Shown: positions 7,601 through 32,000 of the stretch, piece after piece
Numbering within the stretch: position 1 is the stretch's first letter
Layout: each line of letters begins with the position of its first letter
NCBI GenBank assembly: GCA_022843095.1
Contig: JALHOH010000001.1
Coordinates: forward strand, 60,001-92,000
DNA length: 32,000 nucleotides
Source of the DNA: Candidatus Saccharimonadota bacterium
Lineage (GTDB): Bacteria; Patescibacteriota; Patescibacteriia; 2-12-FULL-60-25
Reading direction: 5' to 3'
Translations under genes and position numbers: made by a program
Notes under the pieces: generated by a model
Seen by the model: the letters and a program-made list of their open reading frames with translations, nothing else
Databases searched by the model: none
Told to the model about the DNA's origin: nothing

Positions 7601-7630
7601 ACACCGCAGCCAACGCTGCGGTGTTTTGTT
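7601..7630. terminator. bidirectional intrinsic terminator (rpsP / pif1-like convergent junction)
   Basis: ACACCGCAG-CCAACG-CTGCGGTGT (9-bp stem) followed by TTTGTT. It abuts the TAA of the minus-strand helicase gene. Confidence 0.65.
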
Positions 7631-8909
7631 ACAACATGCGGATGAATTGAGACACCGTAGGATCGGTCCGGATGTCGGTCGCGCGCAACGGTCGAAGCAG
7701 ACGAATCCCATCCAACGACCGTGAACGGGAGAGTGCGACATACGTCTGCCCCGCGGCAAACGCGCCTGCACCCAAATCGATCACCACCTGATCAAAGGTC
7801 TTTCCCTGACTTTTATGAATGGTCGTGGCCCACGCGAGGGTGAGCGGAATCTGACGAAAACTCCCCAATGTTTCGCGTCCAAGCGCCCCTTCCGCCACGT
7901 CATACACGCTGCGCGAAAGATTCCAAAGCGAAGGCTCCACGCGCACGGTCGCCCCATCATCGATCGCAACATCCACCCCCTCTTCTTCCACGGCCTCCAC
8001 CGTCCCAAGCGTCCCGTTTACCCAGCGACCCGCCGTATCGTTCTGCACAAACATCACGCGCGCGCCCTTCTTGAGCGTCAGTTCGGCATCTGTCGGTAAA
8101 TCACGCTCTGAAAATCGTCCAGAAATCATGGCAGAATAGGTGCGCCCTTTGCTTTTGAGTCCACGCATCCGGGTTGCGTTGATCGCATCGGCCTGCGCAT
8201 TGGTCGCGGTCAGCACAATCGCTTCTTTCGGCGTTTTTTTGGTGGGCTGGTAGCACGCATTCAGCGCCTGAAGCACATTCGGATCGACGCGCCCATCACG
8301 AATCGCATTCAATAATTGCAAAAACTCGGCGTCACGCTGTCGGTAGACCTTTTCCAATTGAATGGTGGTGAAGGCGCCAAAATCCATCAGTTCACGAAAG
8401 ACGTTTGATGAAAAGAAAAACGGCGTGGGATACACCTCGCGCAAGGCATCCTGTTCATCCCGACGCACGACAGGCGGAAGCTGAAGCAAATCGCCGATGA
8501 AAACAACCTTCACGCCGCCAAATGGCACAGACATCCCGCGCGCATTCCGCAAAAACAGATCCATCGCATCCAACAAATCCGCTCGCACCATGGACACTTC
8601 ATCAATAATCAACACATCCGTCGCTCGGTACACGCGTTCCTCTCGCGCAGCACGCCCGCCGTCGATCGCCTCCTTCAACGTGACTCCTGGGGCAAATTTA
8701 AAAAATCGATGGATCGTTTCTCCGCCCACGTTCAACGCGGCGATCCCAGTCGGCGCAAGCACTACGTGATCACGCTTGGTTTCGAGCCGAAATTGGCGCA
8801 GCAAGGTGGATTTTCCGGTCCCGGCGCGCCCAGTCACAAACACATGGCCGTCCGATGATTCCATCGCCGACAGCGCCGCTTCAAACGCCTCCGATCGCTC
8901 AAGAGTCAT
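7629..8909 (-). CDS. Pif1/RecD-like ATP-dependent DNA helicase (SF1B)
   Basis: Walker A VTGRAGTGKST, Walker B VLIIDEVSMV, FIGDLLQLPPV, and the C-terminal ATTIHKSQGKTFDQVVIDL...YVALSRSRS motif typical of Pif1/RecD-family helicases. Confidence 0.8.
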   Translation of the reverse strand: MTLERSEAFEAALSAMESSDGHVFVTGRAGTGKSTLLRQFRLETKRDHVVLAPTGIAALNVGGETIHRFFKFAPGVTLKEAIDGGRAAREERVYRATDVLIIDEVSMVRADLLDAMDLFLRNARGMSVPFGGVKVVFIGDLLQLPPVVRRDEQDALREVYPTPFFFSSNVFRELMDFGAFTTIQLEKVYRQRDAEFLQLLNAIRDGRVDPNVLQALNACYQPTKKTPKEAIVLTATNAQADAINATRMRGLKSKGRTYSAMISGRFSERDLPTDAELTLKKGARVMFVQNDTAGRWVNGTLGTVEAVEEEGVDVAIDDGATVRVEPSLWNLSRSVYDVAEGALGRETLGSFRQIPLTLAWATTIHKSQGKTFDQVVIDLGAGAFAAGQTYVALSRSRSLDGIRLLRPLRATDIRTDPTVSQFIRML

Positions 8910-11182: not shown

Positions 11183-11211
11183 TAAAAACCCGCCACAGAT
11201 GTGACGGGTTT
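11183..11211 (-). terminator. intrinsic terminator after gene 11215-12546
   Basis: Stem AAACCCGCCAC / GTGACGGGTTT (one mismatch) with loop AGAT. On the minus strand it is followed by TTTTTA and begins 4 nt after the TAA stop. Confidence 0.6.
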
Positions 11212-11214
11212 CCG

Positions 11215-12546
11215 TTAACGGATCTCCGGACCAACCAGGAGGAGAACGGTTGCACCGACCCCTCCTGCACGCTGGTCTCCGATCGAGCGGAAGTCGGGGC
11301 CCACGATCGCTCGGAGCCCGATGCGGAATCGCGTCCCGCTCGCAGGTCCAAGGAGCGCTCCCGGCTCCACGAATCCACCGACGATATGCGCCGGCAGTCG
11401 ACCCGTTGCCAGGTCGAGGTACTGCATCCCCGCCGCGCCGAACGCGAACGTGAACGCCGTTCGACCGGTGGCGGTCTGACCGCTTGGATCACGCCAGACG
11501 GTCCATCCCGACTGGTAGCGCACCCCCAGCACCTCGTGGAGGTTGAGTTGCGCCTGCGTCATCTGCCCAGAAGGCATGCCGACGCCGATGCCGAAACCGA
11601 CCTGCCCGCTCCAGTGCGCGTTGATCGGGAACGAGAACTCGGGAGCAATGCCGATCGCGCCCGGCGTGAAGTTCAGATATGGCGGGAGCGAAGCTCCGCC
11701 GTAGACCATGAGATTCACGCCCAGATGCTCTCGCATGATCGCGAGGCGGCGATCCGCGAGGTCGAGACGCCGGCTCTGCGTCACGAGCGACCGATTGGTG
11801 AGCTCCTCGCCTTCGCGACGATGCTCCGCCTCCGCGCTCACCAGTTCCGTGGCGCGACGTTCGGCTGCGGCTTGCGCCTCGCCTGCGATCTGCCGCACGG
11901 CGCTTTCACGCAGCGGACGATCGGTCGAGGAACCGAGCTGGCGCATCACCTCGCGCGGGTCGGCGTTTCGCGCCATTCCCGCCGTGCTCCGCGCCAGGAT
12001 TTGCATCTCGGGCGTGAGGCACACGCCTTCCTGAATCCGGCCGCGCTCCATCGGCACGGTCAACTCCGGATCCCACATGCCGCCGATGGCGCGGCAGACC
12101 TGTTCACCGGTGACAGCCGTCACCTGAGACGCAGGCGGATCGCCGGGCGTCGTGACTGCGGCATCCATGGGAGGCGCCACTACCTCCATCGACGCGTCGG
12201 CCACCGGCGCGCTCGCGTCCATCGTGGGCGACCCCGTGACGGGCGGATGCGGATCCTGCAGGTACGGCGCACACCCCGGAAGGGCGGCGCCAGCCGACAG
12301 GAAGCACACGCTGCAATAGTGTTGCGATGCCGGAGGCTCGGGAACGTCCCGGCACTCCGCAAGCGACGCACGCTCGCGCTGGAATTGCTCGAGCGAGACG
12401 CACGCGTTCTCGGCGTGCTCCTGAAGGTACCGCACCACACAGGCACGGACCGGACCCACTCCCGCCGGGGAGAGGGTCTGAGACGACACGGACGACGCTC
12501 CTGCCACAAGGGCAACGAGGATCGTCCAGAACAGTCGCTGGTTCAT
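11215..12546 (-). CDS. exported Cys-containing protein: signal peptide, coiled-coil segment, Gly-rich beta-strand C-terminal domain
   Basis: ATG 12546 is preceded by GGAAGGAG. Signal peptide MNQRLFWTILVALVAGASSVSSQ. There are 8 Cys in the N-terminal half and a charged helical stretch (AGEAQAAAERRATELVSAEAEHRREGEEL). The C-terminal 165 aa have alternating Gly/aromatic strands (AFTFAFGAAGMQYLDL...). Third codon positions are G/C-rich in this frame. Confidence 0.7.
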   Translation of the reverse strand: MNQRLFWTILVALVAGASSVSSQTLSPAGVGPVRACVVRYLQEHAENACVSLEQFQRERASLAECRDVPEPPASQHYCSVCFLSAGAALPGCAPYLQDPHPPVTGSPTMDASAPVADASMEVVAPPMDAAVTTPGDPPASQVTAVTGEQVCRAIGGMWDPELTVPMERGRIQEGVCLTPEMQILARSTAGMARNADPREVMRQLGSSTDRPLRESAVRQIAGEAQAAAERRATELVSAEAEHRREGEELTNRSLVTQSRRLDLADRRLAIMREHLGVNLMVYGGASLPPYLNFTPGAIGIAPEFSFPINAHWSGQVGFGIGVGMPSGQMTQAQLNLHEVLGVRYQSGWTVWRDPSGQTATGRTAFTFAFGAAGMQYLDLATGRLPAHIVGGFVEPGALLGPASGTRFRIGLRAIVGPDFRSIGDQRAGGVGATVLLLVGPEIR

Positions 12547-12685
12547 CTGGACTCCTTCCTTCTGTCTTGAAAAAGAACCCTCAAGTACCGGATTGCCGAT
12601 ACTTAGACCGCCCAGCCGCCGCGCTGTCTGGAGGAGGGACATCGCGTGACTGGGCGATCAAAATACCGCCATCCCAGGACGAATC

Positions 12686-12714
12686 TGCTTACCAAGAAAC
12701 GGGCGTATTGTCAA
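12686..12714 (-). promoter_or_regulatory. putative promoter for gene 11215-12546
   Basis: Minus strand reads CATCCCTTGACAA with TTGACA at 12714-12709, a 17-nt spacer, then TAAGCA (12691-12686). The extended -35 13-mer is shared with 15604-15616. Confidence 0.35.
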
Positions 12715-12812
12715 GGGATGACGCGTGTCGCCCAGAAACGAAAACACCCGCGAGCAATGGCAGAAACCATCCACTCGCGAGTGTCAGACCTCACGCAGCG
12801 CGTGAGGCGAGA

Positions 12813-13928
12813 TCAGCAGGCCGGCGTCCCGTCCAGGTGGATCGTCGGCTTGGTCGTCCCCGAGTTGGGGTCCAAGCACGACCGAATCGGGAGCGTCCCC
12901 GTGGAGCCGTCCGAGTAGGTCACCTCTGCGCGAAGCGCGTTGATGACCGTCCCCGAAGCGGGCCACGACACGTTGTACGAATCCGCCCCGCACACGGTGT
13001 TCATGCGAACGTATCCGCGCCACGGGCCGGGAACACGGAGATCCGCGTTCAAGGGCGAAGGAACCGGGCCGACTTGCGTCGCCCCGAATCCCCACACCGT
13101 GACGCGCGCGCTCGCGCCGCAAGAATTCGGCACCGCACCGGCGTCCACGATGGTCACCGTGAGACGAAGGGGCTCGCGGCCCGCACCAGCGTCCGACGGC
13201 GGAGGCATCATGCCTCCGGTGCAGACACCTGCGGCGCAGGACTGCCCGCTCGCGCAGGAACGACCGCACGTGCCGCAGTTCGCGACGTCCGTGTACGTGT
13301 TGACGCACACGCCGCCACACATCATCTGTCCGCTGGCCGTGCACGTGGGGCTTCCTCCCGTGCAGGCACCGGCGACGCAGGTCTGACCCGCGTTGCAGGC
13401 GCGACCGCAGCCGCCGCAGTGGCTCGCGTTGGTCTGCGTGTTCACGCAGGCACCGCCGCAGGTGGTCTGACCGTCCCCGCAGCCGGGGTTCCCCCCGGTG
13501 CAGATGCCGGCGACGCAGGACTGACCCGCGCTGCAGACGTGACCGCACGTGCCGCAGTGCATGGCGTTGGTCTGGCAATTGACGCAGGCGCCGTTGCAGC
13601 GGGTTTGACCCTCGCCGCACATGACGCTCGCATCGCTCGCGACGCCGCCGTCCGAGGCGACGCAGGCGCGGGTCTGGGTGTTGCACACCTGACCCGCGTT
13701 GCAGTCGCCGTCCGCGCCGCATCCCGCGACGCAGCGACCGTTGTCGCAACGGTTCCCGACGCCGCAGGCGCCGGCCACCATCGTGCACGAGCCGCTCGCG
13801 TCGCCCACCGGCGCCACGTTGGCGTCGGCGTTGCTGCCACCATCGCCGCTGTTGAAGTCGGCGAGGGGGGCGCTGCAGCCGCCCAGAACCATCGAAATCA
13901 CGAACACGAGACCGAAGCGCTTGTTCAT
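12813..13928 (-). CDS. Cys-rich lipoprotein with three tandem 46-aa eight-Cys modules
   Basis: ATG 13928 is preceded by AAGGAG. Lipoprotein signal MNKRFGLVFVISMVLGG|C. I count 38 Cys in 371 aa. The repeat pattern is C-x6/7-C-x3-C-x9-C-x2-C-x3-C-x5-C-x4-C, three times, followed by a C-terminal beta-rich domain of about 120 aa. Third codon positions are strongly G/C-rich in this frame. Confidence 0.8.
   Translation of the reverse strand: MNKRFGLVFVISMVLGGCSAPLADFNSGDGGSNADANVAPVGDASGSCTMVAGACGVGNRCDNGRCVAGCGADGDCNAGQVCNTQTRACVASDGGVASDASVMCGEGQTRCNGACVNCQTNAMHCGTCGHVCSAGQSCVAGICTGGNPGCGDGQTTCGGACVNTQTNASHCGGCGRACNAGQTCVAGACTGGSPTCTASGQMMCGGVCVNTYTDVANCGTCGRSCASGQSCAAGVCTGGMMPPPSDAGAGREPLRLTVTIVDAGAVPNSCGASARVTVWGFGATQVGPVPSPLNADLRVPGPWRGYVRMNTVCGADSYNVSWPASGTVINALRAEVTYSDGSTGTLPIRSCLDPNSGTTKPTIHLDGTPAC
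13212..13625 (-). repeat. three tandem 138-bp coding repeats (eight-Cys modules)
   Basis: aa 102-239 of the lipoprotein: ..MCGEGQTRCNGACVNCQTNAMHCGTCGHVCSAGQSCVAGICTGG / NPGCGDGQTTCGGACVNTQTNASHCGGCGRACNAGQTCVAGACTGG / SPTCTASGQMMCGGVCVNTYTDVANCGTCGRSCASGQSCAAGVCTGG. The period is 46 aa (C104, C150, C196). Confidence 0.85.
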
Positions 13929-14091
13929 CGCTTTCTCCTTCTTTGCTTACTTGTTGAAAAGGTTCGGAACGTGACGCAACCGCGCGTCCGTCCTCCTCTT
14001 GGCGGGACCATCCGTAGATGATCCATCCGAGAGGAGGGGCGCTCGATACCGTATGTACCGAGCGCCCTACCAGCGTTCTTCCCGACCGGCT

Positions 14092-15399
14092 TCAGAACCG
14101 GTCGAGGATGGGGATCGACAGCGTCACCGTCGGGGTGACCTCCGGAGACGACCCCTGGTGCGTAACCTCGCGACCACCATTCGAAGTCATACGAGCGCTG
14201 AACGTGTTCAGCAACCCGCCTACTTCGGCGCCCACCCCGATCTGGAGGCGCCCGGCGCGGAACAAGACCTCCGCGCGACCGTTGAGGGAAAACCCTCGGC
14301 CGCCGGTGTCCTGTTGGACGTTGGCGAACCGCTCCGGCGAGGTGGCGAAGTGCCGCCCCTGGAAGCCGGCGCGGAAGCCGACCGCCGAGCCGCGCGCCAG
14401 GTAGGTCATACCCAGCCCGTACTCGCCGTACCCGACGGCGTTACCGGCGGCGGCGTTGAAGCCTCCACCGCCACCACCGCAGGCGTTGACCTGGATCGAA
14501 CGGTCGGCATTGACGCCGACGTCGACGCAGGCACCCGCTCCACCGAAGGCCGTGACGCCCCCGAGGCGAGCCTCGAGCGGGATCATCACGCCGCCGGAAA
14601 CGAACGGGCGGACGTCGATGCGCTCGGCGAACGAACCACCAGCCGGAGCGGGACGCTCACGGAGGTCACGGAGATCGTTGCAGATCGGCATCTCCGGATG
14701 CAGCTCGCAGCTGATCATCGGGAAGACACCCGCAACCGCACGATTCATCATTTCCTCCACCTGCGCGAGAGTGAGACCCCCCGCGCTTCCGGGCCGAGCC
14801 ATGAGCGCGGTGATCGCCGCGTTCATGCGCTCGATCTCCGCGTGGAAGTTGCGGCAGCGAGCGAGCCGATCGGCTGGCGCCGGACCCGACTGGGTCGAGA
14901 GCGGCGCGCACAGCGCATCGATCTCGCGCTCCGCATCAGTCACCCGGCCTTCCAGCCGCGTGAGGCGATCGACGATCGCCGTCATCTCGCGACGCAGGGC
15001 GTCGCTCGGAGCCGGAACCGGCGCTCCGCCGACTCCGACGGGCGTGCAGCCCACGAAGACACGGAGGCCTTCGGCCTCCCCACCCGCGGTCGCGACGCGA
15101 CGCGGACGGAAGGTCAGCGACTGCACCGCCGTTCCGGCGGGACACCTCGCACTCGTGCCGGAAATGACCGGCAAGAGCGTCGAGAGACGCGGATGCGCGA
15201 CCGGAGTCGGCGTCCGCGATGCCCGGCACTCGTTGAGCTGCCGACGCGTGTCGCTGAGATCGCTCTCGCACTGCGCCAGCCGCGCATCGGCGGCGGTGCT
15301 GCGAGCTTGCCCCAGAGCCTCGACCGGGGCGACGATGGTCGCCAAGATCGTGAACAGAATCACACGCACCAACTGGTGCAGGAACCGTGCCATCATCAT
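14092..15399 (-). CDS. exported Cys-containing coiled-coil protein with Gly-rich beta C-terminal domain ending in Phe (outer-membrane-barrel-like)
   Basis: ATG triplet at 15399-15391 preceded by GGAAGGAG. Signal/anchor MMMARFLHQLVRVILFTILATIVAPVEALGQ. There are 10 Cys and helical segments (LRREMTAIVDRLTRLEGRVTDAEREIDAL). The C-terminal 180 aa are Gly/aromatic-rich alternating strands (GYGEYGLGMTYLARGSAVGFRAGFQG...VTLSIPILDRF*). Confidence 0.7.
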   Translation of the reverse strand: MMMARFLHQLVRVILFTILATIVAPVEALGQARSTAADARLAQCESDLSDTRRQLNECRASRTPTPVAHPRLSTLLPVISGTSARCPAGTAVQSLTFRPRRVATAGGEAEGLRVFVGCTPVGVGGAPVPAPSDALRREMTAIVDRLTRLEGRVTDAEREIDALCAPLSTQSGPAPADRLARCRNFHAEIERMNAAITALMARPGSAGGLTLAQVEEMMNRAVAGVFPMISCELHPEMPICNDLRDLRERPAPAGGSFAERIDVRPFVSGGVMIPLEARLGGVTAFGGAGACVDVGVNADRSIQVNACGGGGGGFNAAAGNAVGYGEYGLGMTYLARGSAVGFRAGFQGRHFATSPERFANVQQDTGGRGFSLNGRAEVLFRAGRLQIGVGAEVGGLLNTFSARMTSNGGREVTHQGSSPEVTPTVTLSIPILDRF

Positions 15400-15581
15400 G
15401 ATGTACTCCTTCCGTGAGGTTGGCTCCCTCACGGAGCCGAGGTTTGTTGCGTTGAAAGTCCTTTCAGTGCTACCCACGCATCAGTGCGCGGACAGTCCCT
15501 GAAGCCATCCCGCCTGCCTGGGACAAGGAGGAGGTATCCCAAGCGCCGGAATGGCTTCAAACACTGTCATCGTGACGACAT

Positions 15582-15610
15582 AACGTATCAAAAAACGACA
15601 ATTTTGTCAA
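15582..15610 (-). promoter_or_regulatory. putative promoter for gene 14092-15399
   Basis: Minus strand reads CATCCCTTGACAA with TTGACA at 15610-15605, a 17-nt spacer, then TACGTT (15587-15582). This implies a leader of about 175 nt. Confidence 0.35.
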
Positions 15611-15637
15611 GGGATGGAAGACATCCTTGAAAACCAA

Positions 15638-15669
15638 CAAAAAAACCGCCCGTTTTTGGGAGGTTTTTT
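15638..15669 (-). terminator. intrinsic terminator after wzz-like gene
   Basis: AAAAAAAACCGCCC-GTTTTT-GGGAGGTTTTTT (one mismatch in the stem). On the minus strand it is followed by an 8-T run, 17 nt after the stop at 15686. Confidence 0.6.
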
Positions 15670-15685
15670 GATCAGACTCTGCCTT

Positions 15686-16297
15686 CTACCCTCGTTTGGA
15701 CACGCTCCACAGCACCCAACCAACCCCTAAAAAGAACCCAAGAAGCGCCCCATACGCCGTGATACTGACAAACTGCGGACGGGCAAACCATCGGGAATCC
15801 AGTGGCGCATCGATGACCTGCATGCGTACGCCATTCCCAAAGTAGTCCTGCGCCAATTTTGCGATCTCGGAAGCCGCAGAAACCACCAGCACACGCGCCT
15901 GCAATCGATCTTCGTGATACGTCGTGACCGTCATGATCCCGGTTCCAGCCGCGACGGATGTTTCGATGGTTTCTCGCCATTTTTCACGTTTCTTATACTC
16001 GTCCACCGGAAAATACGTGGCATCGAATTCCTTTGCCGCATCCAACGTGTCCGCATAAAAAGACGTGGAATACACCAGTTCCTGCAGGGATGTGGCGATC
16101 CGTTCCGTAGCCTTGATCGACGTATACGGATCAACGCTCCCGGCGTTTGGCTGGGTAATCAGCAACCGCACGGATGAGGAGTACTGACGCGGCAAAAGAA
16201 GGCTAAATCCAAAGGCAAGCACGGCGCCAAGCACCGCCATCCCGATCAAACTCCGCCAGGCGTGGGCCATATGACGGCCGTACTGCGGGGAAGACAT
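15686..16297 (-). CDS. Wzz-like polysaccharide chain-length determinant family protein (two TM helices flanking an extracytoplasmic domain)
   Basis: N-terminal TM LIGMAVLGAVLAFGFSLLL is followed by PRQYSSSVRLLI (Wzz-type motif after TM1). C-terminal TM VSITAYGALLGFFLGVGWVLW. ATG 16297 is preferred over the track's GTG at 16339. Confidence 0.5.
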   Translation of the reverse strand: MSSPQYGRHMAHAWRSLIGMAVLGAVLAFGFSLLLPRQYSSSVRLLITQPNAGSVDPYTSIKATERIATSLQELVYSTSFYADTLDAAKEFDATYFPVDEYKKREKWRETIETSVAAGTGIMTVTTYHEDRLQARVLVVSAASEIAKLAQDYFGNGVRMQVIDAPLDSRWFARPQFVSITAYGALLGFFLGVGWVLWSVSKRG

Positions 16298-16380
16298 GTG
16301 GTCAGTATAGCACAGTTCCTTCCAGACGGAAGCGCGCACCCTTCCCCTTTTTCCCGGCTTCCCGTAGGCTCAACACAGGT

Positions 16381-16784: not shown

Positions 16785-17681
16785 TCAGATCACCTTCACG
16801 CCGATCGCCTCGTGCGTGAAGGTGGAGCGATCGTCCGTCACGGGGCGAATCTCTCGCATCGTGACAACGTCGCCCTGCTTCACGCAGTGGAACGTCCCAG
16901 CCGGAGCCAAGATGTTCTTGTAGTAGAGCTTCACGAGCTCCACCGTCTTGGGCCCGCGGCGCACGACGATCGCGCCCGTGCCGCGCACCGGGTTGAACCA
17001 GCGCACGCGGCCCCGTCCGACCGGGATGTCCTGGACGAACACCTCGTCCGAGACCTCCTCGAACCCCCTGCCGTCGAACGGCGGGAGGGACCCGATCTCG
17101 TGCGGAAACCGCTCGTCCATGAAGGCGAGCAACTCCGCGGAGAAATCTCCGCTGGTGTCGCGCCCCTCGAGCTCGGGGCAGCGATAGATCTCCGCCGGGG
17201 TCGAGGACGCACCTTCGTCGTTCTCGTACCCGCGGCAAAGCGCCATCGCGCTCTCCTGCTGGACGAAAAACGGGATGCCATGCTGGACGACGACGCCCAG
17301 CTGCACGCGGATGAGCTTCCCGTCCAGAAGCTCCATCACCGTGCACTGCCCCTGATTCTGATCGATGAACACGCCGTCGCCGCGCATCGGCAACGGCTTG
17401 CAGAAGGCGCTGATGAAGTACTCCGCCTTCGTCGGATCCTCGGTGCGGGACTTGTCGATCCGACGCTTCTCGAGCACCTGGAAGCCGTCGCGCGTCTTGT
17501 CGACGTAGACCGTGGCGCGCTGCATCAGGAGCGTCTCCGGGTACACCACCCGGAGCACGATCTTGTCCTCGGGACGCACGCGCGTCCCGTCCATCCCCTG
17601 GATTCGCTCCCCGTGACGGGGGGTGAACGGGATGATCTTGTTGCCGCGGACGATGTGACCGAAGACCTCGAGGTTGTTCAT
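16785..17681 (-). CDS. hypothetical protein with C-terminal cold-shock-like (OB-fold) segment
   Basis: 298 aa with an ATG preceded by GGGAG. It is more GC-rich than its neighbours. The C-terminus GRVRWFNPVRGTGAIVV...VKLYYKNI...VKQGDVV...EAIGVKVI resembles the CSD pattern G-x-V-K-W-F-N-x-x-K-G-F-G-F-I. The N-terminal 220 aa have no motif I recognise. Confidence 0.6.
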   Translation of the reverse strand: MNNLEVFGHIVRGNKIIPFTPRHGERIQGMDGTRVRPEDKIVLRVVYPETLLMQRATVYVDKTRDGFQVLEKRRIDKSRTEDPTKAEYFISAFCKPLPMRGDGVFIDQNQGQCTVMELLDGKLIRVQLGVVVQHGIPFFVQQESAMALCRGYENDEGASSTPAEIYRCPELEGRDTSGDFSAELLAFMDERFPHEIGSLPPFDGRGFEEVSDEVFVQDIPVGRGRVRWFNPVRGTGAIVVRRGPKTVELVKLYYKNILAPAGTFHCVKQGDVVTMREIRPVTDDRSTFTHEAIGVKVI

Positions 17682-17771
17682 GTCTACTCCCTACCCTGTC
17701 GCTTCACAGGGCACATGTGAAAAGAACATCAACGCGTTTCGGCGACATGCCGAGCACGATGTTGACGTACG

Positions 17772-17800
17772 ACTCTAGCAAAATTTCGTGTTTTTGTCAA
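17772..17800 (-). promoter_or_regulatory. putative promoter for gene 16785-17681
   Basis: Minus strand reads TTGACA (17800-17795), a 17-nt spacer, then TAGAGT (17777-17772). Confidence 0.45.
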
Positions 17801-17889
17801 CCGTCGGTAAACAAATTCCGAAGATGCGGTTTTATAGGATTCGCCCATTGTTCGCGTGTGCGGTACGATGAACCCCATCTCGACTCACT

Positions 17890-18654
17890 ATGCATACACT
17901 CTCACGTCTTTTCTTGATTCCAGGGCTGGTAGCACTTATTGGCGCGGGTTGTACACCTCCCCCGCCGGATGCACCTGTCACGCCGGGAACCGTCCAAAAC
18001 CCCGCACCACCGACCGCTGAAACGGCACAAAACGGCTGCAACCATCCGTACTTGCCACTGAAGCAAGGTTACGAAGTGCAATATCGGTCCAACAATCCGG
18101 ATTTGCGAGGGTACACAATGCGTGTCGCGAACGACGGGCCAAACGTCGCAAACCTTTCCTATTCAACAGCGGACACGTTTGTCGCCCACGTGGTGCGCTG
18201 TGCTGACGGGGCACTCAGTGAAGATTCGTACTTGGATTTGAGCCAATTCTTCGTCCGGAGCAACTCAGACGTCCGCGTGGTCGCGCGTCGGATGGAAGGA
18301 GCCCTACTCCCCCGTGACTTGCGCGTTGGGAGTCGGTGGTCTGCGCGTTTTGAAGGCGCGGCAGAAACGGCACAGGCGGGCGGCGTTCGATCTGAGGTCA
18401 AAGTAGAAGGGATCAAAGAAGCCGTCGCGACCGAAACCGTAACTACCGCCGCCGGATCCTTTCCGAACGCACTCAAAGTCAAAGCGACCTACGTCATCAA
18501 GACCAAGATGCTTGCCCCAGCCGTGATGGATCTCCCAGAAATTCGGTTTGAGGGGACGGAATGGTGGGCACCGGGCAAAGGACTTGTGAAGAGCGTTTCC
18601 GGGGTCGCCGGACAAAGCATCGATGTGGAAGCGGCGCGTATCCAAACACCGTAA
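17890..18654 (+). CDS. putative lipoprotein, function unknown
   Basis: Signal peptide MHTLSRLFLIPGLVALIGAG|C is followed by a Pro-rich linker (TPPPPDAPVTPGTVQNPAPPTAE) and a beta-rich body. Confidence 0.6.
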   Translation: MHTLSRLFLIPGLVALIGAGCTPPPPDAPVTPGTVQNPAPPTAETAQNGCNHPYLPLKQGYEVQYRSNNPDLRGYTMRVANDGPNVANLSYSTADTFVAHVVRCADGALSEDSYLDLSQFFVRSNSDVRVVARRMEGALLPRDLRVGSRWSARFEGAAETAQAGGVRSEVKVEGIKEAVATETVTTAAGSFPNALKVKATYVIKTKMLAPAVMDLPEIRFEGTEWWAPGKGLVKSVSGVAGQSIDVEAARIQTP

Positions 18655-30079: not shown

Positions 30080-32000
30080 TTAGCGTTTCTTCTTCATCGA
30101 AGAAAGAAACGCTGTGACCGCATCCGCCGAAGCGGGTGCGGTCGAGTTCTTTGCCTCCGGCGCCGGCGCTTTTGGCGCGGGCGAGGGCGGAACGGGCTTC
30201 GGCGCCGCTTTCGACGGCTCCGAAACCACGCTTACTTCCATCGGGATGATCTCACGACCATCCCGGTAGAAGATCACGGGGTAGATCATAGCGGGCTTCT
30301 GGGTATCCCCATAAGCCCAGCCAATCGCCCACACCCCGTCGGTGAGCGTCGTGGGAAGGATCACCGTCCCCTCCCAGTTGACGTTCCCCTTCCAGGACAA
30401 ATCACGGACGGTGATCCGAAGCCCTGGAACGGTTTCGATCCAGAAGCGTTCCTTTCGCCGCTCATCGAGCGACTCCAGGCGGGATTCGGCGGCGCCCTTC
30501 GCGGGAAACACCTCGAACCCCTCGGCTTTTTTGCCGCTGCTTACGTAGACGCGGCCAGCGTCCACGAGCAGAAAGATCTGTCCTTGCGGAAGCGATTGGA
30601 TCTTCTCCAAGATCGTGTCGCGTCGCGCAAAGGCCTCTTGCTGCGCCCTCGCCTCTTCGGCTTTCTTATCAGCCAAAGATTTGAGTGCCGCTACCGCCTC
30701 GCCAAGAAGCGCATTGGCCTCCTGCGTCCAGGTCTGGAGGTCTTCCAGTCCGGACGGCAGGTACTCGTAACGCTTGCTGTCGACGCGCGAACGGAGGTCG
30801 CCGTCCAGATCGTACCAACCCTCGCGGGACTGGACGCTCCGGAGCGACTCCTGCGCTGCCTCGGCCATGGCCTTGGTCTCGTCGAACTGCTTCTGCTTGA
30901 TCGCCTCCTCGCGGATGCTCTCGAGCTTGGCAGCCGACTTCGCACGCGCGGCATTGGCCTCCTCGCGAACCTGGAACCACTTGCCCTCGAACCAGGGGTC
31001 CGAGGAGTAGTACCGGTAGTCCTTGAGGTCGACCGCGCCAAAGGCGACGAGTGACGTTCCGTCGATGACCGAGATGCCGTACCGGCATTCGATGATCTCC
31101 GGAACGACCGACGTCGGATCGGCGGGGTCCGGCAGCCCGATGGCCGGACGGCCTTCGGTCGGCCAGTTGTCCCAGAGGCACTTGTTCGCGCGGCTCACGC
31201 AGCGCGTCTTGAGCTCCGGGATGTCCCGGCCGCTGACGGTGTCGTAGTAGCCGAAGGGCACTACGACTTCCACCACGCGACCTCCCGGGAGCTTGACCCC
31301 CGCGTCCGGCAGCTCGCGCCAGCCGTGCGCGGTGATCGTGTCTCGATCGAGCGTAATCCGCGGGGTGTGACCCTCACGGTACTCGACCCGGAACGTCCGA
31401 CCGATCACCGTGATCTCGTCGGGGTTCTCGCCCATGACGAGCTCGACCAATTCCGCGTCGGGCGCGGGTGGCTCGAGCGCTGCAGGGTCAACGACCTCTG
31501 CCATTCGCCGAGCGCCACAAAGACACTTCTTCAGATAGGCGCCGACCTCCTCCGGACTCATCACCGTGAAGATCGTCTCGCCAGCACGCGTGTTGAGCGC
31601 GCGAGCTTCAGTCTGCGCGTAGCGCGGTTGTGCCGCGAGCCACGCGCAGAAGATGTTTGCCGCCTCGACGTGCTCGGGATCGGCGACCGCCTCCTCCTTG
31701 ATCTTCTGCCCGTTGAAGAACGTCTCGGTGGTCGAAACCACGGAGTCCTTCGCCGAGTCGAAGTACGGGCGGAGACCGGTCTTCCGCTCCACGAGCTGCG
31801 GGGCGACGTCGGCGAGCAGCTGCGGATCGACCGCCGTGGCCATCGAGACGAGGCGCAGGGTCACGAGACGACCCCGACGATCCTTGATCTGGATGTCCTT
31901 CGGTAGGCCGACGAGCCACTCGGGACCGCCGCGCACGACCGACTCACGCGCGAGCTCGCGCTCGACCGGCGAACCGTTGATGTACCGGCCGTACTGGCTC
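30080..32000 (-). CDS. C-terminal part of a DEAH/HrpA-like helicase with long non-canonical C-terminal region (5' end outside window)
   Basis: The frame stays open from 31936 to the window edge; the track M at 31936 is an internal GTG. GPEWLVGL...RLVSMATAVDPQLLADVAPQLVERKTGLRPYFDSAKDSVVSTTETFFNGQKI parallels the HrpA OB-fold and downstream segment (..W..ELVETSR..A.IDPEW.EP.A.HL.KR.YSEPHW....G.V.A.E.V..YG). It ends in a Pro/Ala/Lys-rich tail. The region is GC-rich. Confidence 0.45.
   Translation of the reverse strand, partial: SQYGRYINGSPVERELARESVVRGGPEWLVGLPKDIQIKDRRGRLVTLRLVSMATAVDPQLLADVAPQLVERKTGLRPYFDSAKDSVVSTTETFFNGQKIKEEAVADPEHVEAANIFCAWLAAQPRYAQTEARALNTRAGETIFTVMSPEEVGAYLKKCLCGARRMAEVVDPAALEPPAPDAELVELVMGENPDEITVIGRTFRVEYREGHTPRITLDRDTITAHGWRELPDAGVKLPGGRVVEVVVPFGYYDTVSGRDIPELKTRCVSRANKCLWDNWPTEGRPAIGLPDPADPTSVVPEIIECRYGISVIDGTSLVAFGAVDLKDYRYYSSDPWFEGKWFQVREEANAARAKSAAKLESIREEAIKQKQFDETKAMAEAAQESLRSVQSREGWYDLDGDLRSRVDSKRYEYLPSGLEDLQTWTQEANALLGEAVAALKSLADKKAEEARAQQEAFARRDTILEKIQSLPQGQIFLLVDAGRVYVSSGKKAEGFEVFPAKGAAESRLESLDERRKERFWIETVPGLRITVRDLSWKGNVNWEGTVILPTTLTDGVWAIGWAYGDTQKPAMIYPVIFYRDGREIIPMEVSVVSEPSKAAPKPVPPSPAPKAPAPEAKNSTAPASADAVTAFLSSMKKKR

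Follow-up and report, generated by a model that had tools for sequence, protein, structure and literature searches.

We analyzed a 32,000-nucleotide (nt) stretch of DNA, hereafter the window, from contig JALHOH010000001.1 of a Candidatus Saccharimonadota bacterium and focused on one gene on its minus strand. This target gene lies at 14092..15399 and, according to the list of open reading frames (ORFs) of the window, encodes a product of 435 amino acids (aa). Its ATG at 15399 is preceded by the Shine-Dalgarno (SD) sequence GGAAGGAG at 15406-15413, with a spacer of 6 nt, and a gene call in a public protein collection (P0001), found on one contig of 683,555 bp, is 100% identical to the product over 435 aa. 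The GC content at codon positions 1, 2, and 3 is 0.70, 0.56, and 0.81, respectively, a pattern typical of real coding frames with high GC, and this favors the frame of the target over those of the long shadow ORFs of the opposite strand. By its codon-position GC, its SD sequence and ATG, and the identical public gene call, the target is a genuine gene. The protein contains no Lys and no Trp over its 435 aa, and the following features were recognized in it, partly with AlphaFold2 (AF2) models and their predicted local distance difference test (pLDDT) scores.

15316..15399, minus strand: signal peptide, residues 1-28, with R5 and R12 in the n-region, the h-region VILFTILATIVA, and the c-region P-V-E-A, read from sequence and hydropathy

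15223..15309, minus strand: N-terminal helix, residues 31-59, an AF2 helix of low to moderate pLDDT in which Cys44 and Cys58 are two heptads apart

15037..15144, minus strand: beta-hairpin module, residues 86-121, bracketed by Cys86 and Cys118, with AF2 strands at 90-104 and 107-121 (block-mean pLDDT ~50-61)

14656..15003, minus strand: helical region, residues 133-248, with AF2 helices, a 4-3-4-3 pattern, and weak coiled-coil matches at 132-210

14095..14619, minus strand: Gly-rich amphipathic beta domain, residues 261-435, delimited by composition, the z score for alternation, and a domain-only AF2 model

A Sec signal peptide was read at residues 1-28/30. The n-region MMMARFLHQLVR carries two positive charges (R5 and R12), and the c-region, P25-V-E-A28, is followed by Leu and has small residues at -3/-1. 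The signal peptide was judged by eye, and the -3/-1 rule was applied to locate the cleavage site. These features suggest that the protein is exported through Sec and cleaved near Ala28, the alternative being that the segment is retained as an uncleaved anchor.

The protein contains ten cysteines, at positions 44, 58, 86, 118, 164, 182, 231, 240, 291, and 307, which form the nearest-neighbor pairs 44/58, 86/118, 164/182, 231/240, and 291/307. To judge from sequence and model, Cys44 and Cys58 of the first helix could also bond between chains in an oligomer. Across residues 135-163 a clean 4-3-4-3 hydrophobic (heptad) repeat was found, and the full-length AlphaFold model placed helices at 133-164, 173-201, and 211-248, with block-mean pLDDT of ~50-78 and its peak in 133-201; the 211-248 stretch was split by AF2 into helices 211-233 and 238-248, with Cys231/Cys240. 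The loop that joins helix 173-201 to the heptad helix (133-164) is flanked by Cys164 and Cys182. Because this pair brackets the inter-helix loop, the helices may form an intramolecular, disulfide-stapled helical hairpin or bundle of ~45 Å, as sequence and model suggest, rather than a long trimeric coiled-coil rod. Residues 133-164 (14908-15003, minus strand; LTRLEGRVTDAEREIDAL) resemble one LEGRVTxAExxIDAL unit of the long coiled-coil arrays found in P0002 and P0003 (E ~1e-4). For paired cysteines in extracellular proteins of bacteria lacking an outer membrane, the Pam pilins of the Candidate Phyla Radiation (CPR) provide a precedent (bioRxiv 10.64898/2026.03.03.709456).

The last 180 aa (residues 256-435) contain 19.4% Gly, 6.7% Phe, three Tyr (1.7%), and no Trp, and end in ...VTLSIPILDRF, so that Phe435 is the last residue. 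Within the beta domain, Cys291 and Cys307 are placed symmetrically around a turn at 297-301. Hydrophobic residues alternate with period 2 in residues 256-435, with z scores of 4.2-4.6 against shuffles of the same residues, and this alternation is absent from the N-terminal 225 aa (z of -0.6). The alternation exceeds chance, yet it indicates only amphipathic beta strands. Among the controls, the C-terminal domain of the neighboring gene product (12813-13928), which is presumably soluble, scored 4.0-4.1, GFP scored 2.0-2.7, and OmpA scored 3.0-3.1; because beta controls that are presumably soluble score similarly, the statistic is not diagnostic of a barrel. A home-made count of charge-free strand faces gave a z of ~0.2 against shuffles, composition alone being able to produce such runs, and this test was dropped.

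The full-length AlphaFold model had a mean pLDDT of 47.8, with ~30 in the beta domain. The domain-only AF2 model, with a pLDDT of 48 and a predicted template modeling score (pTM) of 0.40, contained eight strands of 8-15 aa (mostly 12-15), two shorter strands, and tight turns. The predicted turns at 337-338 and at 382-383 comprise two residues each, and longer loops span 316-324 and 352-368. When the model was read against the sequence, each long predicted strand had one charge-free face and an opposite face of Gly together with Arg, Glu, Gln, and Asn, and Gly accounted for about one-third of the residues on the non-hydrophobic face. A Foldseek search with this domain against the PDB found no match at E<=1e-3, with a best template modeling (TM)-score of 0.33, and a second Foldseek search likewise gave no significant match. 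The list of non-significant matches mixed the 8-stranded outer membrane proteins (OMPs) TtoA and OmpW with GFP and gasdermin pores.

In the C-terminal beta-signal of OMPs, the last residue is aromatic and hydrophobic residues occupy positions -3, -5, -7, and -9. In the target, this rule is followed by Phe at -1, Ile at -5, Ile at -7, and Leu at -9 but not by the Asp and Pro found at -3 and -6, respectively. OMPs also carry an aromatic girdle rich in Tyr and Trp, and no such girdle was found in residues 256-435. When the signal-peptide-like ORFs of the related loci described below were examined, 1 of 96, the target alone, was found to have an aromatic end together with a C-terminal domain rich in Gly.

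Homology searches with the target returned little. Pfam yielded no family at E<=0.01 for the full-length protein and none at E<=10 for the C-terminal 181 aa alone, and thus no OMP family. For residues 30-254, neither an SLH nor any other domain was detected at E<=10, the only matches being weak coiled-coil families (E of 0.06-1.7). No family for the target was found in NCBIfam or PHROGs, and a PDB sequence search gave no usable relative, its only match being LppM (E=1.3). A word-indexed search of 5.8 billion clusters recovered only the target itself. Exhaustive phmmer searching of 1.84 billion representatives recovered the self-match and three weak matches (E ~1e-4), of which two, the fibre-like proteins P0002 and P0003, align through coiled-coil repeats with residues 132-210 of the target and the third aligns with residues 21-147. 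With the target as query, nothing was matched in phages or plasmids or in contigs from genomes, viruses, or metagenomes. At the level of sequence, the target is an orphan, without a homologue among ~15 billion proteins.

These results bear on a preliminary description of the gene, made from its sequence, which had taken the product for an exported, surface-anchored protein consisting of a stalk and an outer membrane barrel. Export is supported by the Sec-type signal peptide seen in sequence and hydropathy, and the helical heptad-like stretches by the 4-3-4-3 repeat at residues 135-163 and by the AF2 helices. The description of the last ~180 aa as Gly-rich, alternating, and ending in Phe also holds (19.4% Gly, z of 4.2-4.6, Phe435). 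Five Cys pairs had been placed in the ~250 aa after the signal; five pairs do exist, but the first 250 aa contain only four of them, the pair 291/307 being inside the beta domain. As for the stalk, the placement of Cys164/Cys182 suggests a stapled helical hairpin or bundle rather than a long rod. Structure prediction, which had been proposed as a check, was done with two AlphaFold models (pLDDT of 47.8 and 48.0) and gave long strands but did not establish a closed barrel. The barrel claim itself rests on the C-terminal Phe and the amphipathic, Gly-rich strands and is not established: the Pfam search was negative at E<=10, Foldseek gave no significant match, the alternation is undiagnostic, Asp and Pro occupy positions -3 and -6, and Trp is absent.

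We investigated the genomic setting of the target. The housekeeping genes of the window encode TrmD, KhpA, SMC, RbfA, NrnA, ClpP, a SpoIID-domain protein, a Wzx-like flippase, and CofD/YvcK. The TrmD of the window is 70% identical to that of a metagenome-assembled genome (MAG) named 'Patescibacteria group bacterium', and the next relatives keep the KhpA-TrmD(-SMC) synteny. Patescibacteria have been proposed to lack an outer membrane (PMC12102498), and no gene for outer membrane biogenesis was found among the annotated proteins of the 32-kb window. A metagenome scan with SMC yielded 50 related loci (39-74% identity, the longer ones mostly 55-66%), on which the window proteins were mapped. The flippase, SpoIID, NrnA, RbfA, SMC, KhpA, TrmD, and a P-type ATPase make up a conserved backbone in these loci, and in 14 of the 16 related contigs that have both rbfA and smc, the two genes are divergent neighbors 48-164 nt apart. 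In the window this junction is occupied by an insertion.

11200..16380, no strand assigned: genome-specific insertion of ~5.2 kb, from smc to rbfA, containing a Wzz-like gene (15686-16339) and three high-GC secreted genes

None of the four inserted genes was matched in the 50 related loci by tblastn at E<=1e-2. The GC content is 65-73% within the three high-GC genes and 48-59% outside, with a sharp step at both edges of the island, and the intergenic spacers inside the island have a host-like GC content of 48-58%. The GC content at third codon positions (GC3) of the three island genes is 0.76-0.86, compared with 0.55-0.70 in the flanking genes. Their synonymous codon usage is correlated more strongly among themselves (r of 0.83-0.89) than with the pooled flanking genes (r of 0.61-0.72), and their strongly preferred codons are TTC, GAG, CTC, TAC, and AGC/TCG. 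Neither a flanking att-like repeat nor an integrase or tRNA was found at the island edges. The preliminary description had supposed a small-genome host lineage thought to lack an outer membrane. The TrmD identity (70% to the Patescibacteria MAG) and the 683-kb contig bear out a small-genome Patescibacterium, and the published proposal is in line with the lack of an outer membrane. It had also offered, as one way out, that the gene is foreign, and the genome-specific insertion between rbfA and smc and the atypical codon usage support that branch.

Two Pfam-less, non-secreted genes elsewhere in the window (16785-17681 and 30080-31936, both minus strand) belong to the island codon class, with GC3 of 0.91 and 0.81, respectively, and r of 0.80-0.92 with the island genes. 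Because these two genes fall in the same class, the class may consist of resident, dispersed accessory genes and not of a single recent import. Compared with the related contigs, the window also has a 298-aa gene and a DUF3108-like gene (16785-18654) between rbfA and nrnA and a Pif1-like helicase (7629-8909) between smc and khpA. The same backbone junctions hold other extra genes in some relatives (L084, L092, L098, L100, and L103). One related contig, L002 (CAZURG010000003.1), is titled 'uncultured Gammaproteobacteria bacterium' and has SMC-KhpA-TrmD in the Patescibacteria arrangement, with a TrmD 65% identical to that of the window; its bin label looks wrong.

The other two high-GC genes of the island were also examined.

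12813..13928, minus strand: lipoprotein-like, Cys-rich secreted protein of 371 aa, with the lipobox L-G-G-C18, three STIG1/MXAN_6577-type repeats, and an unmatched beta-rich C-terminal domain

11215..12546, minus strand: second orphan, a secreted protein of 443 aa that has a signal peptide, 8 Cys, a helical segment, a Gly-rich amphipathic beta C-terminus, and no Lys

The Cys-rich gene matched Pfam PF04885 at 9.7e-16 and NCBIfam NF041328 with 115.9 bits (cutoff of 100), and it contains three 138-nt tandem repeats at 13206-13622. Named relatives of this MXAN_6577-like/STIG1-type family are almost all from Myxococcota, and here a family member is found in a Patescibacteria genome. No conserved neighborhood was found among the relatives of this gene. 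The homologue search with the second orphan recovered only the self-match, and the alternation in its C-terminal domain gave a z of 3.0-3.8. No similarity between the two orphans was detected by BLASTP or by shuffled Smith-Waterman alignment (z of 0.0 for the C-terminal domains and 0.7 at full length). Paralogy of the target and the second orphan was considered and is unsupported, as the alignment scores are at the level of shuffles. The target, the Cys-rich gene product, and the second orphan contain 10, 38, and 8 Cys and 0/435, 2/371, and 0/443 Lys, respectively, and the flanking genes mostly have 2-7% Lys. GC bias alone fails to explain the scarcity of Lys, because the two genes of the same codon class elsewhere in the window have 4-6% Lys. 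To judge from sequence and composition, the three high-GC genes apparently constitute a coherent, co-regulated module of Cys-rich, almost Lys-free exported proteins.

We next turn to the noncoding sequences around the target, in which three features were recognized.

15586..15616, minus strand: promoter-like element CATCCCTTGACA-N14-TGnTA, 5' of the target; direct repeat D3, with a 77%-identical copy at 12690-12720, 5' of the second orphan

15400..15580, minus strand: structured 5' leader of the target, with a long hairpin at ~15498-15562, the apical loop CCUCCUCC at 15527-15534, and the SD sequence GGAAGGAG at 15406-15413

14037..14067, minus strand: perfect 9-bp GC-rich hairpin (GGGCGCTCG / CGAGCGCCC) followed by CCUCCUC, 25 nt past the target stop and without a U-tract

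The 9-mer CCCTTGACA occurs twice in the window, both times at the promoter-like elements of the two orphans, and a 13-mer of the element is absent from 133 related loci. The 31-nt element common to both orphans would act as a promoter. The RNA fold of the target leader has a free energy of -98.4 kcal/mol (z of -7.9 against 200 shuffles), and the leader of the second orphan (12547-12685, minus strand) folds with a z of -4.3; neither leader was matched in Rfam at E<=1. An anti-Shine-Dalgarno-like motif, CCUCCUC(C), and the ribosome-binding site GAAGGAG are present in all three island leaders (15400-15580, 12547-12685, and 13929-14067, all minus strand), and CCTCCTCC occurs in 8 copies in the window, with 1.3 expected. 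The hairpin at 14037-14067 is a possible terminator of the target, part of the leader of the next gene, or both.

Taken together, these observations are best explained, tentatively, by the target being a lineage-unique, disulfide-stapled secreted surface protein of an acquired three-gene module, with the beta domain as its working end. Transcription would start from the promoter-like element of the gene itself and proceed through the strongly structured leader, in which the loop CCUCCUCC could mask the ribosome-binding site GGAAGGAG. The product would be exported through Sec, and the signal peptide would then be cut near Ala28. Because the cysteines are spaced pairwise, we infer that five local disulfides would form outside the cell and staple the N-terminal helix, the beta-hairpin, the helical hairpin or bundle, and a beta-hairpin in the C-terminal domain. 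The C-terminal 175 aa would fold as an all-beta structure, most likely a binding domain at the cell surface that is soluble or associated with the wall, and the neighboring lipoprotein may serve as a membrane anchor for the target. Its role would probably lie in the cell-surface or host-contact biology of an episymbiont.

Several points weigh against this explanation. The structure models are of low confidence and so demonstrate a soluble beta head no better than a barrel. Strand faces rich in Gly and long strands of mostly 12-15 aa characterize small membrane barrels more than soluble sandwiches. Once the signal peptide is cut, the protein would have no evident anchor, so that surface retention is assumed, and disulfide formation requires an oxidizing system.

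It is possible, but unlikely, that the C-terminal 175 aa build a true transmembrane beta-barrel, similar in size to OmpA or OmpX and with 8-10 strands, which the helical and hairpin modules would extend at its N-terminus. The gene could then have come from a diderm donor, or the protein could insert in an unrecognized outer layer or in the outer membrane of the host cell of the episymbiont. The terminal Phe435, together with Ile at -5 and -7 and Leu at -9, would suit a beta-signal, but Asp and Pro weaken it at -3 and -6. Every long strand in the model has a charge-free face opposite one of Gly and Arg/Glu/Gln/Asn, and two-residue turns (337-338 and 382-383) alternate with longer loops (316-324 and 352-368); however, the aromatic girdle of OMPs is hard to reconcile with no Trp and three Tyr, and the domain contains a cross-strand Cys pair. 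In strength, the alternation equals that of OmpA, but soluble beta controls reach the same z. TtoA and OmpW are among the best, non-significant Foldseek matches, but no TM-score exceeds 0.33, the model pLDDT is ~30-55, and no OMP family was matched at E<=10. The combination of a Gly-rich C-terminus with an aromatic end, seen in the target alone (1/96 signal-peptide-like ORFs), and the naming of the neighbor's family almost only in Myxococcota, which are diderms, would agree with a barrel; against this, no diderm homologue was found among ~15 billion proteins, and an outer membrane is reported to be absent from the host lineage (PMC12102498). That a lineage lacking an outer membrane exports a membrane barrel without relatives, either as an anchor or pore independent of the beta-barrel assembly machinery (BAM) in the outer membrane of the host cell or into an outer lipid layer of its own that has gone unrecognized, we consider very improbable.

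Two other explanations concern the island rather than the fold. The module could be a passenger, recently acquired from a high-GC donor, that is decaying and plays no part in its present host, which is quite unlikely. The atypical codon usage and GC content, the absence of the module from all related contigs, and its singleton status in databases fit a passenger, whereas decay is difficult to square with three intact ORFs that have strong SD sites and leaders. The intergenic GC of the island is host-like (48-58%), the promoter-like element common to both orphans must have been duplicated or maintained, and the presence of 16785-17681 and 30080-31936 in the same codon class raises the possibility of a resident gene class instead. 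We regard it as extremely unlikely that the island is an assembly or binning artefact in which high-GC DNA was chimerically joined into a Patescibacteria contig. A chimera would account for the sharp GC step at both island edges and for the Myxococcota-type neighboring gene, but it would need two precise junctions within a 683-kb contig, both of them in the short divergent intergenic region of rbfA and smc. Moreover, the spacers inside the island have host-like GC, the island codon class recurs at two other sites in the window, and the donor sequence is in none of the collections searched.

The present value of the locus lies in a genome-specific, apparently co-regulated three-gene module that would encode secreted, disulfide-rich, almost Lys-free proteins, two of which have no relatives in the searches made. 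Its site is an insertion hotspot of a Patescibacteria genome, and the module is a reasonable candidate for cell-surface or host-contact functions, which are largely unknown in Patescibacteria. Orphan secreted surface proteins are common in Patescibacteria genomes, and only a demonstrated barrel would be a surprise. If the domain were a true barrel, either the single-membrane picture of Patescibacteria would need to be revisited or the episymbiont would insert a protein in the host envelope in a new way.

We compared the target with known systems. Like the small 8-stranded outer membrane barrels (the OmpA N-domain, OmpX, and OmpW; Pfam clan MBB, e.g., PF13505 OMP_b-brl), it has a domain of ~175 aa with Gly-rich, alternating strands, a charged or Gly-bearing other face, tight two-residue turns together with longer loops, and a last Phe. 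Unlike them, it has no profile match, no Trp, only three Tyr, Asp and Pro at -3 and -6, and an internal Cys pair; in addition, its domain lies C-terminal to a helical and hairpin extension of 260 aa, and its host belongs to a lineage reported to have no outer membrane. The OmpM/SlpA/Mep45-type tethers of Negativicutes, Deinococcota, and Thermotogota consist of an SLH domain, a coiled coil, and a C-terminal porin barrel. The target resembles them in its order of signal peptide, helical heptad segment, and C-terminal beta domain, but it lacks an SLH domain, its helices, of ~30 residues each, resemble a stapled hairpin or bundle more than a long trimeric rod, and its beta domain of ~175 aa with ~10 predicted strands is far below a 16-30-stranded porin.

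Trimeric autotransporter adhesins (YadA-like) share with the target the logic of head, stalk, and C-terminal beta anchor and the aromatic last residue; the target differs in having no Pfam match to YadA_anchor, YadA_stalk, or a head and in its ~175-aa domain, compared with a four-strand anchor of ~70-100 aa. Among MXAN_6577-like/STIG1-type proteins, it is the neighbor (12813-13928), not the target, that scores above the NCBIfam cutoff and has three CxxCxxC-type repeats, and this neighbor differs from the family in its occurrence in Patescibacteria, its lipobox, and its unrelated C-terminal beta domain; the target itself is unmatched. Fibre-type adhesins and phage tail fibres combine an alpha-helical coiled-coil shaft with a beta 'knob' at the C-terminus. 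In the target the motif is present once rather than as an array, and the protein matched no PHROGs family, phage genome, viral contig, or knob family. It resembles them, however, in that its residues 132-210 match the LEGRVTxAExxIDAL repeats (E ~1e-4) and that the beta domain at its C-terminus would serve as a distal end for binding.

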